Program-made: the position numbers and the translations under genes
The notes under the pieces: generated by a model
The model's input: the letters and a program-made list of their open reading frames with translations, nothing else
Told to the model about the DNA's origin: nothing
Database searches by the model: none
Part shown: piece after piece, positions 1,374 to 58,147 of the stretch
How the letters are laid out: the number at the start of each line of letters is the position of its first letter
Numbering within the stretch: position 1 is the first letter of the stretch
Source: a virus
Lineage: Duplodnaviria > Caudoviricetes
Length of the DNA stretch: 64,000 nt
Strand: one strand, 5' to 3'
Virus record (IMG/VR): IMGVR_UViG_2974672904_000001
Location: 7,916 to 71,915 of that record

Positions 1374-3014
1374 TTATTTTAGGAGACGCATAATAGCATC
1401 TTCTTGCTCTTTTTCTACCCCAAGAGCGCCCCAACCTTTTTTAGCTTGACGCTTAATGGCAAGAGCTTCTTGTGCCTGTTCCTCGGTAGTTACAGGAAGT
1501 AGAGCAGCTAGTTTAGCCCGTGGAGATTCCTTCTTAGGAGCCTTCGGCTTAGGTGCAGACTTAGGTTTAGCCTTAGCTTTCGCTTTCGGTTTTTCCTTAG
1601 CCTTAGCCACTTCTTTGAGAGTCTCTTTCAGCTTCTCAGTAGGTTTAGCTTTGTCCACAGATTTTCTCTCTGCTTTCTTGGCTACCTCTTTAGCATCCAG
1701 AGATTTTCCCTCAAGAGGGGTAGAAGGGTCATTCACATCTTCATCAGCGATGATAGCTGATTCAGGTACCACATCTTCTTCTGCTACTTTAGTAGGGGTA
1801 GAAGTGCCCCCTGCTGTTTCATAACTAATGTTGTCCTGACTTCTGCCCTGCAAGGTAACATACTGCGTTACCCCTACGTGGTTACCCGCTAGAAGCTTAG
1901 CAATGACTTCATCTGCACCTTTGACCGTACCCAAAGAAACGTTCTGGCTAAGGGCATCGAACATCTTATCATTAGCTTTCCCGATGACGTGGTAACGACA
2001 ACAACGAATCTTAGTCGTATCGTAAGTAGGGACAGCAATAATGTCTTCAGGGGCTATTTTGATAAACAGAATAGCCCCACCGTGGAAAGACCTTAGGTAA
2101 GAGCGAGACGCTACATGTAGCCCATAAGAACAGGAAGCAGCACGGGAAGAATCCACATAGTCAATGCCCATCTGAACCACTGAACCTACTTTCTGTTTCA
2201 CCTTACCTGTATGAGAATCTGCATAGAGACCTTGTGTCGCATCTAAGATTTTCACACGCTTGTAAGCCAAGATAGAACCGTCGTCCATAATAGGGAGGTC
2301 AGCGTGTTTTAAGAAGGAAATTAAGTCCTCCACAGAGTGCTGACGTTCATGAATCATCTTGCTCAAACGAATCATGAGATTATCCATCCCTTTGATACGT
2401 CCTGCTTTCGTTGCATGTGTAACCTGAGTTTTCAAGTTATCTGCGTTAGGCAGGACAGTATCCCCTACAACAGCTACGGTAACAGCATCATTATTATCTT
2501 TACGCTGAGAAGCATGAAGAGAAGATGTTGTATCCCCTACCGGACGAGTCTCAGGTTTATCATTAATAATGTCTTTTACAGCTTGACGATGTTTCTGACG
2601 ACTCTGTTCTTGAGCAGATATCTGAGGCTTTGGTGCTACAGTATCTACAACTGGGGGTGCAGGAGTAACAGGTTCAGGCTCATCTGTTTTGAACTCTGTC
2701 TGTCCTACTTCTTGAGGAGTCAGTTCTTCTACAGGAGCAAAGAGAGTTTCTGCAAACTTTCTCGCCACACGGAAGAACTTAACCACACCTGCCGATTGCT
2801 CAGCATAGATTTCAAATTCAGCACTGGATACCTTTTGCTGTACAGGCATCAGGGCTACTTGGTGATTAACAATGTCATCCATTGCATCATAAAGAATCTT
2901 GGTATCAGCAATGTCACCTTGCTTCACAAGAATGGTAGTACCGTCTGAACGATACAGGGTGACGATAGTGGGGCTAACCACTATCCCTACAATTTTCATC
3001 TTATCCATTTTCAT
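1374..3014 (-). CDS. rIIB: rIIB-like protein
   Basis: Motifs LPIMDDGSILAYKRV, SCSYGLHVAS..Y, IKIAPEDIIAVPTYDTTKIRCCRY; lies directly after rIIA with a 4-nt overlap. Confidence 0.9.
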   Translation of the reverse strand: MKMDKMKIVGIVVSPTIVTLYRSDGTTILVKQGDIADTKILYDAMDDIVNHQVALMPVQQKVSSAEFEIYAEQSAGVVKFFRVARKFAETLFAPVEELTPQEVGQTEFKTDEPEPVTPAPPVVDTVAPKPQISAQEQSRQKHRQAVKDIINDKPETRPVGDTTSSLHASQRKDNNDAVTVAVVGDTVLPNADNLKTQVTHATKAGRIKGMDNLMIRLSKMIHERQHSVEDLISFLKHADLPIMDDGSILAYKRVKILDATQGLYADSHTGKVKQKVGSVVQMGIDYVDSSRAASCSYGLHVASRSYLRSFHGGAILFIKIAPEDIIAVPTYDTTKIRCCRYHVIGKANDKMFDALSQNVSLGTVKGADEVIAKLLAGNHVGVTQYVTLQGRSQDNISYETAGGTSTPTKVAEEDVVPESAIIADEDVNDPSTPLEGKSLDAKEVAKKAERKSVDKAKPTEKLKETLKEVAKAKEKPKAKAKAKPKSAPKPKAPKKESPRAKLAALLPVTTEEQAQEALAIKRQAKKGWGALGVEKEQEDAIMRLLK

Positions 3015-5563
3015 TCCTTGGTTATTTTAGCTAATGCTCGAAGAACTCTACGGTTGCACTCAAGAGTCTCCTTGTTATGAATACTTGCCATATTGTCAAT
3101 GTATACGGATATAACACCATCATGCACAGGAACACACTTCTTCCATTTATTAACCAATCGGTCAATGAATGGGTATGGCTTCACTGACTTTTTCATCTGG
3201 TCATAAGCCTTAGAGGTATTATTATCCATGTGATATTTGGCAATATTCGATATCGGAGATTTTTCCCTCTCAGGACGTTCAACCTTTTTCACATCGAATA
3301 AATACAGTAAGTTTTTATCCCCATCTATCATTCGTTGCAGTACACGGGTATAGAAAGGCCACCCTCGTACCTTCAGGGCATAGTTTCGTGAGACTGTATG
3401 TGCTGCTCTCGCTTTGAACCAAGCAGATTTTTTCATGTAAGCATCGGCATCTTTTGTCACTAACTCTGAGAAAGATATCTCTGTTTTAGCTTTAAGATAC
3501 TGAGGCTGTGTCATCACTATGCCCACCTCGTTACCATACACTTCAGCAAGGTCTGCCACGATAAAGCTAAATACTGTACCAGTAGCTTCACACTTGATGG
3601 TTGCTTTAGGGGTATCCTTATTTAAAGCAATCTGAACAATGGCTTTAGGTTTTGCAATATAAGCAGGATACGCACGTTTACGGTACGTAGTAACATCTAC
3701 CTTACCTTGTGCATCGAGTAGGTTAGATAGAGCAAGTACATGCCCCTGCTTATTGAAGATAGGGGCATCCCCTTTATTCACTAAACGGGTTATCTCCGCT
3801 TTCTTCTGAACCTCTGCCCGTTCTACGAAGATTCGCTTCACATGATGCGGGTCAGCTTCTTTGGATACAGTAAGGTCTTCTACGTGATAACCTGCTTGTG
3901 TATAAGTCTCCACAGCATGTTTTACAGCTTCACGAGAACGTTTATGCAAAACCTGAATTAATACCCCTTCAGGACGGAAATCCTTACCATAGAGTTGGCG
4001 TAAACGGGCACGAGCAATCTCATAGGTGTTCTGCTTTGTGAAGGTCAATAGAATAGTTTTCTTCAATGCCCCTGTAGGATTCAGCACATTGTCCAACTTT
4101 CTAACTTCTAAGTAAGGGGGACGAGCATCTGAAGGTTCATATACAGCCTGTCTCAAGGACATCATCAACAGGGGACGTTTAGAGAGGTCTTCGTCATTAA
4201 TATGAGCAATGACAGCTTTCTTCCACAACCCCTGCACCATGTTGCGTACAGAGACGCTAAAGCCCCTAGGCATATAGTGGCGTGTACGGGTTCTTGACGT
4301 TTTCCCCATAAGGCGTTTCACCTCGTCTGACCATGATGCATACATTTGGCGTTCCTGAGGAGGGAGTGCCTCGATACGGCTGCACAGGTCTTTTATATAA
4401 GGAGGAAAGAACTTATACGTAATGCGTGATTCTGCTAACACAGAGGACAGTGCTAAGTGACGGAAACTCACATTATTACTATCAGGAGCACTATTCCACT
4501 CTCTGGAAAGGTCAGAAGTTAGCGTTAATGCTTTATTGGCTTCATAGATTTCCTCAAAGATAGGAAGCTCTTTCCGTTCGGCATATAACCCGTCTGTAAC
4601 GGCTTTTATCTCTTTATCCAAGGCTTCGGGTACCTTAGCAAAGAACTCGTCAAATAAGCCCTGTACAGCCTTCACAGTAATGTCCTGCATCGACATTTCT
4701 TCACGACTAGGTGTAATAGCAAGGCTGTCAGGTTTAGCTTGAAGAATGAGGTTGTAATTACAACGACCGCTTACATGGTCAAGCAAGTTTCCAATCAGTT
4801 CATAATCGTCATGATAGTCTTCATGGTCAGAAAGGGGATAAACCACATTCCCATAACGAACATAGATGCTTCTTGTGTTGGTCATGCCCGTTGCATACTG
4901 AGGAACAAATGCAAAAGAATTCTCATCCATGCTCATGTCTAATGTAGGGAGAATCTCACCATCCATGTCACACGATATAGAACCAAGAAATACCACTTCA
5001 CGAATAATACTGTGAATATTTCGGATGGTATTTTCAGGTACTGGAATACGTAGCGTAAGTCCTGTTCTCACTGTAGGGAGAGACACAATAGGAGTGAAGC
5101 TAGGGAACCCATCTTTATTTGGGTCAGAGCGAAGCATACGATAGATAGTGCGAACACCTCCATGATATGCAGTCACTTCAAAATTGTCAGTATAGGCATA
5201 CGGAGATTTACACCCGTAACCAAAACCACCTGTTTGACGACCATCGTTTTTCTTAGTTGAATTACCAATCGTACAATACACTTCACCCATCTTAGCGTGA
5301 GGGATACCTGTACCACTGTCTTCAATAACCAGATGACCATCATCTATGGCTACTTTAATTGGAGTGCTGGTGGTGCCATTGGCAATATGAGAATCCCATG
5401 CATTACACAAGGCTTCACGAACCATTGCATACAGAGGGTTCTTATACAAAGAAGCAAAGAATACTTTGAATGCTTCTGGGGTTTGGGCAAATGTAAATGC
5501 CTGACTTTGACCTGAGGCTACTAGAGCACTCTCAACTTGGTCGGAGACTTTGGATACTTCCAT
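3011..5563 (-). CDS. rIIA: rIIA-like protein (N-terminal GHKL ATPase domain)
   Basis: GHKL motifs REALCNAWDSH, IEDSGTGI, STK..DGRQTGGFGYGCKSPYAYTDNF; 850 aa; precedes rIIB. Confidence 0.92.
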   Translation of the reverse strand: MEVSKVSDQVESALVASGQSQAFTFAQTPEAFKVFFASLYKNPLYAMVREALCNAWDSHIANGTTSTPIKVAIDDGHLVIEDSGTGIPHAKMGEVYCTIGNSTKKNDGRQTGGFGYGCKSPYAYTDNFEVTAYHGGVRTIYRMLRSDPNKDGFPSFTPIVSLPTVRTGLTLRIPVPENTIRNIHSIIREVVFLGSISCDMDGEILPTLDMSMDENSFAFVPQYATGMTNTRSIYVRYGNVVYPLSDHEDYHDDYELIGNLLDHVSGRCNYNLILQAKPDSLAITPSREEMSMQDITVKAVQGLFDEFFAKVPEALDKEIKAVTDGLYAERKELPIFEEIYEANKALTLTSDLSREWNSAPDSNNVSFRHLALSSVLAESRITYKFFPPYIKDLCSRIEALPPQERQMYASWSDEVKRLMGKTSRTRTRHYMPRGFSVSVRNMVQGLWKKAVIAHINDEDLSKRPLLMMSLRQAVYEPSDARPPYLEVRKLDNVLNPTGALKKTILLTFTKQNTYEIARARLRQLYGKDFRPEGVLIQVLHKRSREAVKHAVETYTQAGYHVEDLTVSKEADPHHVKRIFVERAEVQKKAEITRLVNKGDAPIFNKQGHVLALSNLLDAQGKVDVTTYRKRAYPAYIAKPKAIVQIALNKDTPKATIKCEATGTVFSFIVADLAEVYGNEVGIVMTQPQYLKAKTEISFSELVTKDADAYMKKSAWFKARAAHTVSRNYALKVRGWPFYTRVLQRMIDGDKNLLYLFDVKKVERPEREKSPISNIAKYHMDNNTSKAYDQMKKSVKPYPFIDRLVNKWKKCVPVHDGVISVYIDNMASIHNKETLECNRRVLRALAKITKE

Positions 5564-55115: not shown

Positions 55116-56036
55116 TTAATCGAAACCAGAGACATCACCTTTCTGGTGGAAGTCTACGGATGCTTTATGGAATGCATCTTTCTGGTAGTTAACAAATTTG
55201 CCTTGTACATTACTGCGTAGTCGGGCATCACGTTTATGAGGAAGATAGAATTTGTTGCCTTCTTCTATCAGAATCTCATGTACTTTCTCTTGCTGCTTCA
55301 CGTAGATGTCAAAGGTCAGCTTAGCCATTGCCCTAGCCTTAGGGTGAATAGTTGAGTGGTCTTTAACATACGGAATCTGCATGGCAAACTCCTCGCAAAT
55401 AGAAAGAGGTATGGAATTGGCTACGTTAATAGCCATGTAATCCACTGGGTACTCGTGGTGTTTTAACCCACTTTTTCCAAGAATGATACTGCCAGTAGTA
55501 ATGATGTGATAAGCCTGCGAATAGTTCTTCTTGATAAAGTTCAAGGGGGCTATTGACGGGATAGGCTTATCGTACTGAGCCATTTCTTTCAGAGTTTCTT
55601 TAGCCAAATGAAAGTTAGCAATGACGTTAATGCCATCGAACTTCGTTTGGAAATCCAGAAGCTCTGTATCGGCTAAGCGAGTCATGAAGGTATCAGCCAT
55701 AGACACTGCATCTATTGGTTCCTCAGCCTCGAAGTCATGCATAAGCATTCCTACGTACTGTTGAATAGAAGCCTTAGGCTGTTGCATCAAGGTATGGATC
55801 ACTTTACTGGCTATACGCGTAAACGCACAGTCATCATCACGAGTGTCATCAATGCGTACTGTTACGTAGTCACGGACATGGCAACGCTTGATTTCATCGT
55901 ACACCAAATCGAAGAACTCCAAGAGAAGGTCATCTTCTTGGATTAATTCATCTAAGTATTTGGCTTTCTCAGCATAAGTCAGTTCTAAGTCCATTTGACG
56001 ACTTATAAGTTCTTGCTCACGATATGGCATAGTCAC
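55116..56036 (-). CDS. RNA polymerase II small subunit (RNAP1, N4 gp15-like)
   Basis: GSIIL; EGNKFYLPHKRDARLRSNVQGKFVNYQ aligns with the gp15 DxxGR region. Confidence 0.88.
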   Translation of the reverse strand: MTMPYREQELISRQMDLELTYAEKAKYLDELIQEDDLLLEFFDLVYDEIKRCHVRDYVTVRIDDTRDDDCAFTRIASKVIHTLMQQPKASIQQYVGMLMHDFEAEEPIDAVSMADTFMTRLADTELLDFQTKFDGINVIANFHLAKETLKEMAQYDKPIPSIAPLNFIKKNYSQAYHIITTGSIILGKSGLKHHEYPVDYMAINVANSIPLSICEEFAMQIPYVKDHSTIHPKARAMAKLTFDIYVKQQEKVHEILIEEGNKFYLPHKRDARLRSNVQGKFVNYQKDAFHKASVDFHQKGDVSGFD

Positions 56037-56835
56037 CTCGTAGAATTTCTTTAGATAGGTCAGGGGATATCTTGTCGATAATCACTTGCTCACCCACAAT
56101 CGTTGAACAGATTTGAGACGCTAATTCTCCATCTGCTATCTCAGCCATGATATTGATGTAATGCTGTTTCATGTGACCCACAAAGTTAGGTAGACATGTG
56201 AACTCATCAAATACACTGACTTCATCGAATGAGGGTGTGCGTAGTAGATTACCTAGCATATAGCCCATAGCTTTCAGGTACTGCTCATCCTGTAAACGAG
56301 TAGGCAATTCTAAGTGACGGAAGATATCTTCATAGTTGTTCAAAGACGGAATGATGACAGGACTCACCACCCTTTCTTTGGGTACATGGCCAATCTTCTC
56401 CAATGTACGGTAAGCTTCGACAATACGGCCAATATCGGCAATACGTCTGTAAGCACAACGTACCTGCATTTCACTGGCTACATAGGCATCAATGCTGTGA
56501 GCAATATCAGCAGCCAAAGACACACCCTTAGGTTTACCCTGAACCTTGTTAAAGGAGTAAATGTATTCATTGTGGACATTCTCTATCTTGAAAGATTCCT
56601 GTGAGATAACGTTGTTATGGATATAGGCACCACTTGGTACCTGCCAGAGATGGGTATCATCATCTGTCCATAAACCTGTCAGCTCAACGGCATCAGGATT
56701 GTATTTACTGATAGCGAGATTACGCATCAGGGAAGCTCCCTCACAGTGTTCCTGCATTACTTCGTAGAAAGTGTTGAGCATTTGTTTGTCAAAGTGACAC
56801 AGCTCAGCAGGTTTCTTTGAGGAGCCATAGTAGTG
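56017..56835 (-). CDS. RNA polymerase II large subunit (RNAP2, N4 gp16-like), exon 2
   Basis: Open frame of 272 codons starting HYYGSSKKP; contains AHSIDA, motif C VFDEF.CLPN and gp16-like ending DYAIS. Confidence 0.9.
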   Translation of the reverse strand, partial: HYYGSSKKPAELCHFDKQMLNTFYEVMQEHCEGASLMRNLAISKYNPDAVELTGLWTDDDTHLWQVPSGAYIHNNVISQESFKIENVHNEYIYSFNKVQGKPKGVSLAADIAHSIDAYVASEMQVRCAYRRIADIGRIVEAYRTLEKIGHVPKERVVSPVIIPSLNNYEDIFRHLELPTRLQDEQYLKAMGYMLGNLLRTPSFDEVSVFDEFTCLPNFVGHMKQHYINIMAEIADGELASQICSTIVGEQVIIDKISPDLSKEILRGDYAIS

Positions 56836-57688
56836 CTTGGTGTTCGAGAGAAGGCGTTACACTTCTCCCCGATAGGTGGGTCATATCCTATCAGCTATGT
56901 ATTTCTACATAGAACAGACTATATCATCACCCTTATTTCTAAGGGGCTATGCGCTTCCACTACCAATAACTTGTAGTGTATGCCTTGTTACAGGACTTAC
57001 TAGTCGTTGCACGTTATTTGCCATGCCGCGAGGTGTACGTAGTATCCATTTGTTTGAGGTCTTCTAGTACCGCAAGAGCCTCGTCAAATGTTTTCCTACT
57101 TCTACTTAATCGCTTAGAACCCACAGTTCTACGTATAACGTAGTGCTTATGGTAATCACTCCAACGTATCCCTGTTACGCCAGATGTGTTATCTGCACGT
57201 TTTTTACGGTTACGATTGTTTTCAAGGTGAGTGACTAGTCTTAGATTAGAACTTCTGTTGTTATCAGGATTTCCATCTCGATGGTCTATCATCTTCCCTA
57301 CAGGAAATGCACCATGAACCAGTACCCAAACAATTTCATGCTTGGTTACTCGTCTACGTACACCTTGGGGAATCTGAATGTAATGGTATCCTTGCTGTCC
57401 GATATGGAAGGTAGCTAAATCATGCTGTTTAAATCGCATGTGGTAACCATCTTTCTTTCTTCGGACATTCTCATCAGCATCTAAGTAAAACTCATCTAGA
57501 ATGATGTGTAGGTACTTATTCACGTTCTTTGTCATGGTATCTCTCCCTTAGTAGAAGTCATGATACTCCCATAACAAATGTCATGTCAAATCTTCGCTCA
57601 GGATTGTCTACAGCATTACCTGTTTAGAGGTTCCCTGAATTCACATAGTTTAATCGAGGAGATTACTCTCCAAGTGACCCAGTTACTA
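56836..57688 (-). mobile_element. Group I self-splicing intron, subgroup IA2, 853 nt, with HNH ORF
   Basis: P1 U-G pair at the 5' splice site (exon UGACU with IGS GGUCA at 57675-57679). P 57630-57642, Q 57596-57605, R GUGCAACGACUAG 57000-57012, S GAUGAUAUAGUC 56917-56928. P2, P3, P7.1, P7.2, P8, P9, P9.1, P9.2 helices. Omega-G at 56836. Removal restores the reading frame. Confidence 0.93.
57014..57535 (-). CDS. Intron-encoded HNH homing endonuclease with C-terminal AP2-like domain
   Basis: KHEIVWVLVHG, IDHRDGNPDNNRSSNLR, NTSGVTGIRW; lies between intron elements Q and R. Confidence 0.9.
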   Translation of the reverse strand: MTKNVNKYLHIILDEFYLDADENVRRKKDGYHMRFKQHDLATFHIGQQGYHYIQIPQGVRRRVTKHEIVWVLVHGAFPVGKMIDHRDGNPDNNRSSNLRLVTHLENNRNRKKRADNTSGVTGIRWSDYHKHYVIRRTVGSKRLSRSRKTFDEALAVLEDLKQMDTTYTSRHGK

Positions 57689-58138
57689 AGTCATAATGGC
57701 GTATTTCACATCAGCAGGTAGAGCATCATCAAACTTAAAGTTGGAATCACTCATGTATCCGTACAATGTGGCATAAGCGTTTGCCCTTACTTGTCCTGTA
57801 AGCCCACATAGTGCTGCACCAGATTTACAGCCTGTAATAGCAGAGAACATCTGAAGACCAGAAGCTCCTGCGTCTTGTCCTACTCGGTAGCCCGTAGTAG
57901 GTACTCTTGTTTTGGATTGTTCCAGTAGGTTGAAGTACTCGGTAACAGCTCGAATGAAACGATAACGTTCTTTCTTATCGGCTTCCTCAGCCATCTCTAA
58001 AGCTTTCTCACGTCCTAGGTCTACGATGCCTTCAGCATTCTCTATACGGACGTGGTACAGCTCTTTATCCCATCCGAACATGTTGGCTATATCTACAAGT
58101 AGCCAATCACGTCCAGTAAACTCTCTCCAATCTTGCAT
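57689..58138 (-). CDS. RNA polymerase II large subunit (RNAP2, N4 gp16-like), exon 1
   Basis: FTGRDWLLVDIANMFGWDK; motif A QDAGASGLQ; ends DVKYAIMT at the splice site; the apparent TAG is the first intron triplet. Confidence 0.92.
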
Positions 58139-58147
58139 AATATTTCC

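Follow-up and report, generated by a model that had tools for sequence, protein, structure and literature searches.

Does a phage whose middle RNA polymerase gene is annotated in two pieces, with a nuclease gene between them, still encode an intact polymerase? The question is raised by a 64-kb stretch of DNA (the window), part of a 71.9-kb virus record, that comes from a marine Vibrio breoganii phage in the genus Mukerjeevirus (N4-like, Schitoviridae) and is 98.8-99.2% identical to phages 1.169.O, 1.188.A-C, and 1.261.O, which belong to the same genus and to the Nahant collection. The gp16-like RNAP2 gene of this phage lies on the minus strand and is split by an 853-nt insert (57688..56836). 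An earlier note on this DNA had described the gene as showing up as two broken genes, and the RefSeq records of the relatives look the same, with "RNA polymerase" annotated twice alongside an "HNH endonuclease". Two minor features of the surroundings were also observed. At 55116-58138, the gp16-like gene is followed downstream by the gp15-like one; N4, phi 1, and JWAlpha have the opposite order, with gp15 upstream. At 58139-58145, the window is without a 246-bp gene (e.g., HOU76_gp50) that is present just upstream of exon 1 in the 3 closest relatives. The features of the locus are listed in Table 1.

Table 1. Features of the interrupted RNAP2 locus and of its insert, in window positions.
Feature	Position	Strand	Evidence or remarks
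gp15-like small subunit of the same polymerase	55116..56036	minus	PHROG 2166 1e-40
RNAP2 exon 2, 272 aa	56017..56835	minus	PHROG 2051 positions 140-401; 6DT7_B residues 146-404 (from exon 2 residue 3)
RNAP2 (N4 gp16-like) exon 1, 150 aa	57689..58138	minus	Pfam RNA_pol 2e-9; PHROG 2051 positions 2-139; 6DT7_B residues 3-143
Group I intron, 853 nt, T4 td/nrdB-like (IA2-like)	56836..57688	minus	starts UAG, ends omega-G at 56836
Intron ORF, 173 aa, I-HmuI-like HNH homing endonuclease	57014..57535	minus	HNH_3 2.4e-16; PHROG 99 1.4e-32; PDB 1U3E 2.4e-8
P1	57675..57693	minus	exon UGACU + intron UAG (57693-57686) paired with guide CUGGGUCA (57682-57675)
5' core	57598..57671	minus	Rfam alignment; blastn similarity to Bas93 and MQM1 introns
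P2	57671-57667 / 57662-57658	minus	
P3 5' strand	57648-57642	minus	
P4	57638-57633 / 57603-57598	minus	
P5/P5a	57628-57607	minus	
P6 (C57596-G57012) and P6a (57591-57587 / 57020-57016)	57012..57596	minus	enclose the 566-nt loop L6a with the endonuclease ORF
3' core	56889..57012	minus	model R1, 80.2 bits, E 2.3e-16; covariation
P7	57005-57001 / 56921-56917	minus	
P7.1	56994-56983	minus	
P7.2	56978-56958	minus	
P3 3' strand	56953-56947	minus	
P8	56945-56930	minus	
P9	56912-56895	minus	
P9.1 (56892-56871), P9.2 (56867-56848), conserved UCGAA tail, terminal G	56836..56892	minus	

Exon 1 contains motif A (GQDAGASGLQ) and the front half of motif B (K-Y-A-I-M-T), ending in ...ATT ATG ACT at 57689, and is followed by the intron letters TAG at 57688. 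The insert closes with ...CACCAAG at 56836, and exon 2 starts at 56835 with CAC TAC TAT GGC TCC, so that it opens with the back half of motif B (H-Y-Y-G-S); it also contains motif C (VFDEF). Joining 57689 to 56835 in silico gave a 422-aa protein in which motif B (K-x7-YG) is restored as K-Y-A-I-M-T|H-Y-Y-G-S, the predicted ligated junction being ...ATGACT|CACTAC... (in its longer form ...ATTATGACT|CACTACTATGGC...). This protein is gap-free at the junction when aligned with N4 gp16, VCO139, U1G, and 1.238.B (DVKYAIMT|HYYGSSKKP in the window versus DCKQAIMTALYGSEAKP in N4). The 2 exons cover successive parts of the PHROG 2051 "RNA polymerase" profile and of N4 RNAP2 (PDB 6DT7 chain B), and their tblastn matches adjoin to the nucleotide in U1G, AN24P2, and Philippe, whose genes are uninterrupted. 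Motifs A, B, and C at full-length homology to the N4 RNAP II large subunit were obtained only after exon joining. At the level of sequence, these alignments and coordinates agree with both the 57689/56835 junction and the 422-aa product in register with N4 gp16 that had been proposed earlier. As a separate observation, motif C of the window RNAP2 (56206-56211) reads V-F-D-E-F compared to V-H-D-x-F in N4, VCO139, U1G, and 1.238.B, a change of the conserved His to Phe.

The best overall explanation for this arrangement, and one that we hold with high confidence, is a group I intron with a homing endonuclease gene (HEG) in RNAP2, for which splicing, nicking, and homing are predicted. A different explanation is that the polymerase is made of 3 polypeptides (gp15-like, N-terminal fragment, and C-terminal fragment) without any splicing, the insert being a free-standing endonuclease gene or a dead intron, comparable to Aeh1 NrdA/mobE. 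It draws support from the fact that N4 RNAP II, a T7-like polymerase, is split to begin with (PMC5418858), from the listing of 2 RNAP fragments in RefSeq, and from earlier papers that left the matter open for JWAlpha. However, the interruption lies within the O-helix and separates K-x5 from x-Y-G, and exon 2 has no start codon or Shine-Dalgarno sequence at the junction. Its first in-frame ATG, 18 codons downstream (56781) and also without a Shine-Dalgarno sequence, would lose Y-G. Furthermore, a full covarying ribozyme core with the U.G pair and the omega-G surrounds the ORF exactly at the junction that preserves the register. We therefore consider unspliced fragments to be very improbable. 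Since UAG is the first intron codon and is in frame with exon 1, unspliced RNA would give only a 150-aa stump.

The earlier note had proposed a cmsearch with group I models. No match in the window reached the gathering threshold of Rfam RF00028 (50 bits), but below this threshold the intron halves matched at 30.6 bits (E 1e-5) and 23.5 bits (E 1.5e-3), and an E-value scan across the whole window returned the intron in RNAP2 as its sole match. The gathering score was missed because the 566-nt ORF-bearing L6a loop splits the model match. We also used a covariance model (R1) made from the 3' domains of 10 other introns, T4 td and T4 nrdB included and the window excluded. R1 gave a single match in the 64-kb window (57012..56889, minus strand; 80.2 bits, E 2.3e-16), and a single match in the 71.9-kb genome as well. 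The 2 strands of P3, although separated by about 690 nt in the window, were canonical in 62 of 63 cells across 9 related introns, with 3 pair types at three positions, a level of pairing reached by none of 5000 partner shuffles. RNAalifold, applied to the ten-intron alignment without the window, recovered P7, P7.1, P7.2, P8, and P9, with compensatory changes in 17 of the 25 pairs. The unconstrained MFE fold of the loop-trimmed intron recovered P1-P6a, P7.2, and P8-P9.2 and was devoid of P7 and P7.1; P7 is absent because it crosses P3, as expected for a pseudoknot. By blastn, the 5' and 3' parts of the window intron resembled introns, annotated or evident, that lie in the DNA polymerase, nrdB, and terminase genes of phages. 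It could be argued from the Rfam scores, all under the gathering threshold, that an ordinary HNH gene is surrounded by a chance likeness to a group I core. The probability of this is negligible given the E-value of the independent model R1, the blastn similarity to annotated introns, and the covariation of P3 and of the 3' domain; the covariation and the R1 score effectively refute it.

The splice-site pair within the 8-bp P1 is U57689.G and the terminal intron residue is G56836, both as in group I introns. A compensatory change in P1 was found in the metagenomic contig L015, which has exon GCCU and guide GGGC. P10 of the window intron comprises only about 2 bp. The hairpins P7.1 and P7.2 are present between P7 and P3', as in subgroup IA2, and P7.2 covaries (CACUAC/GUAGUG in the window, CACUGG/CCAGUG in MQM1, and CGCCGG/CCGGUG in Bas93). 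A G-U-A linker between these hairpins has been quoted as a signature of IA2 (PMC3428280). This linker is G-U-A in T4 td, T4 nrdB, MQM1, Bas93, and the metagenomic contigs L014 and L015, but A-U-A in the window and in the Eldridge nrdB and phiAGATE terL introns. The td-like IA core with P7.1/P7.2 put forward in the earlier note is thus borne out by model R1, the covariation, and the helix map, while the label IA2 is backed by the 2 hairpins and by the homology to the T4 td/nrdB 3' domains but not by the linker. The window intron shares with T4 td and nrdB (IA2) the order P7, P7.1, P7.2, P3', P8, P7', P9, P9.1, P9.2, the conserved GAUAUAGUC, the UCGAA tail, and an ORF in L6a whose translation start is occluded. 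Unlike them, it lies in an RNA polymerase gene, encodes an HNH enzyme (td: GIY-YIG I-TevI), has the AUA linker, and carries an extra P5a on P5. The P6/P6a/L6a architecture of the MQM1 and Bas93 introns is as in the window. Judged by its sequence, the insert at 57688..56836 belongs to the group I introns of T4 td/nrdB type, and it is predicted to splice at the 57689/56835 junction.

The intron ORF scored 59.5 bits with Pfam HNH_3, compared to a cut-off of 24.8. Its stretch DHRDGNPDNNRSSNLRLVT aligned with DHKDGNKDNNLSTNLRWVT of I-HmuI, and the D-H and N residues are conserved (D-H...N-N...N motif). I-HmuI is the nicking enzyme of the SPO1 DNA polymerase intron and an HNH homologue of the window ORF (1U3E E 2.4e-8). 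The ORF lies within L6a, where its stop codon overlaps the 3' strand of P6a, and its Shine-Dalgarno sequence and AUG are paired in a hairpin (57530-57585; -18.4 kcal/mol, z -2.66). Such a hairpin would restrict translation of the endonuclease from unspliced early transcripts. An occluded translation start of the intron ORF is known for T4 td.

For the survey of variation, 4 genomes (the window, 1.169.O, 1.188.A, and 1.261.O) were aligned across 8.4 kb, giving 253 variable sites. A tract of 993 nt (57712..56720), which comprises the intron and extends 23 nt into exon 1 and 116 nt into exon 2, was invariant, while the flanks vary at 3.3% of sites. From the rate outside, 28.6 variable sites were expected in the intron and none was observed (Poisson P about 4e-13); the 522-nt endonuclease ORF had no substitutions across the 4 genomes, synonymous ones included. 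This pattern fits a recent sweep with co-conversion of the exon flanks, a pattern that any recent recombination could also give. It bears on the possibility that the intron splices while its endonuclease is inactive or no longer mobile, the element being a fixed passenger inherited vertically in Mukerjeevirus. The intron is indeed carried by 6 of 6 known genomes of the genus, and no intron-less allele with more than 60% protein identity was found for it by tblastn, by the IMG/VR locus search with exon 2 (no relative), or by a word-indexed protein search for matches to exon 1, which returned the cluster of the window itself and no other. In contrast, the ORF is intact and retains the motif aligned to I-HmuI, its lack of substitutions points to a recent sweep and not to old vertical descent, and a homologous HEG (45% identity) occupies the same site of a distant RNAP2. 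We regard a fixed passenger as unlikely, though it keeps some weight. Presence/absence polymorphism was seen for the phi 1 intron only, VCO139 of the same genus being uninterrupted. The word "mobile" used earlier for the window intron has indirect support, from the intact HEG, the 993-nt invariant tract, and the related introns and HEGs at the same site in distant RNAP2.

With the group I intron as the preferred reading, the early transcript would fold so as to form the ribozyme. Free guanosine would attack after U57689, paired to G in P1, and the 3'-OH of exon 1 would next attack after G56836. The ligated mRNA would encode the 422-aa gp16-like subunit with K-x7-YG intact, and this subunit would combine with the gp15-like subunit encoded downstream to form the middle-gene polymerase. 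When relatives co-infect, the I-HmuI-like HNH enzyme most probably nicks those of their RNAP2 alleles that lack the intron, and during repair the nicked alleles would receive the intron together with adjoining exon sequence. Middle transcription may depend on splicing, and the nuclease may attack competitor phages, as the earlier note had also supposed. A published precedent for an intron endonuclease in competition between phages is PhiPA3 gp210, where an essential RNA polymerase gene of a jumbo phage contains a putative group I intron that encodes an I-HmuI-like HNH nickase (PMC11620839). The PhiPA3 polymerase is multisubunit (beta/beta'-like), whereas that of the window belongs to the T7-like single-subunit family and is split in the N4 style.

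Interruption of motif B was found to recur in RNAP2, at 2 intron sites 7 nt apart, whose users include phi 1, pVco-5/7, JWAlpha, and many metagenomic N4-like phages. In Vibrio cholerae phage phi 1 (L004:1543-2417), RNAP2 is interrupted 7 nt upstream of the position used in the window (K-D-P-L|M-T-H-F-Y-F-S) by a distinct group I intron that carries an EndoVII-like endonuclease; this intron recurs in the RNAP2 region of pVco-5 and pVco-7 (83.6% identity), and the uninterrupted gene of VCO139 is on L006. In JWAlpha (L017, about 1480-2280), a group I core is present at the upstream site, with the junction K-S-A-V|M-T-A-F-Y-G-S. The upstream site lies inside codon K+3, and in phi 1, JWAlpha, and the metagenomic contig L016 (about 3740-4590) it is associated with another ribozyme subtype and an EndoVII-like endonuclease. 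When exon 1 was used in a full phmmer scan, 240 relatives were returned, and about 15 of their best 150 cluster representatives are proteins of 134-157 aa that stop in motif B, after K+5 or K+3 (P0005, P0027, P0045, P0048, P0054, P0055, P0080, P0104, P0106, P0112, P0114, P0125, P0126, P0135, and P0136). Of the metagenomic contigs that encode these short proteins, the 3 inspected (L014-L016) all show exon 1, an endonuclease ORF, and exon 2 in this order, with a group I core.

Contig L015 has an intron at the window's exact site with a similar ribozyme and an endonuclease of another family (L015:1170-1757 versus 57014-57535 in the window), and L014 carries the 45% identical homologue of the window endonuclease mentioned above, with an uncertainty of 1 nt in its exact splice site (acc|gca or acct|ca). 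Global nucleotide identities between the window and L014 or L015 were about 60-80% for ribozyme and exons alike. The presence of unrelated endonuclease families at one site with a similar ribozyme suggests that introns exchange their endonuclease genes. Ribozymes akin to the 5' half of the window intron were also found in motif B (K-T-F-I-Y) of family-A DNA polymerase, in Bas93 (L005:2499-3186) and MQM1 (L002, about 2988-3288). By sequence of the 5' half, the DNA polymerase introns of Escherichia phages Bas93/Bas94 and Aeromonas phage MQM1 count among the ribozymes most closely related to that of the window. They interrupt codon K+4 of K-T-F-I-Y, no more than 5 nt from the corresponding place in the O-helix. 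They differ from the window in the gene and the exon sequence, and also in the endonuclease, which is EndoVII-like in Bas93; the first MQM1 intron is annotated with only a 190-nt predicted ORF. The SPO1, Pf-WMP3, and PhiI/W31 introns (the latter 2 being IA2) likewise lie in the fingers subdomain of a Pol A / T7 superfamily polymerase, as in the window (PMC3428280), but they interrupt DNA polymerases, whereas here the homologous motif B of an RNA polymerase is interrupted. A broader reading, which we offer tentatively and with more doubt than belief, is that group I introns could have a hot spot in the O-helix motif B of RNAP2 throughout the family, with 2 sites and 2 interchangeable endonuclease families. 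One intron lineage would have repeatedly colonised motif B of 2 polymerase classes; among Vibrio phages that occur together, the nuclease may serve as a weapon of competition and splicing may gate the early-to-middle switch.

Introns are on record for other genes of N4-like phages, in td (PMC5746245) and, as suspected introns, in gp24, DNAP, and gp43 (PMC3670811). The earlier note named no described intron in an N4-type RNAP II, but interrupted RNAP2 genes had in fact been published, unrecognised as introns. An endonuclease gene interrupts RNAP2 in Achromobacter phages JWAlpha and JWDelta (PMC3915230) and splits it in Pseudomonas phage ZC08 (PMC5418858). JWAlpha differs from the window by its site 7 nt upstream, its ribozyme subtype, and its EndoVII-like endonuclease. 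In the literature searched, no group I intron had been explicitly described before in an RNA polymerase gene of the T7-like, single-subunit family, which would make this the first. Elements of this kind are well known; the host gene family had no earlier explicit intron description, and within it such elements are recurrent. With about 15 of the best 150 representatives stopping in motif B, N4-like phages should offer a good system for intron-endonuclease competition between co-infecting phages. In at least 6 Mukerjeevirus genomes, phi 1, pVco-5/7, and JWAlpha, the essential polymerase annotated as 2 fragments plus a nuclease should be one spliced gene of 408-422 aa. The intron reading would also answer Wittmann et al. 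(2014), who asked if RNAP2 of JWAlpha still functions despite its interruption.
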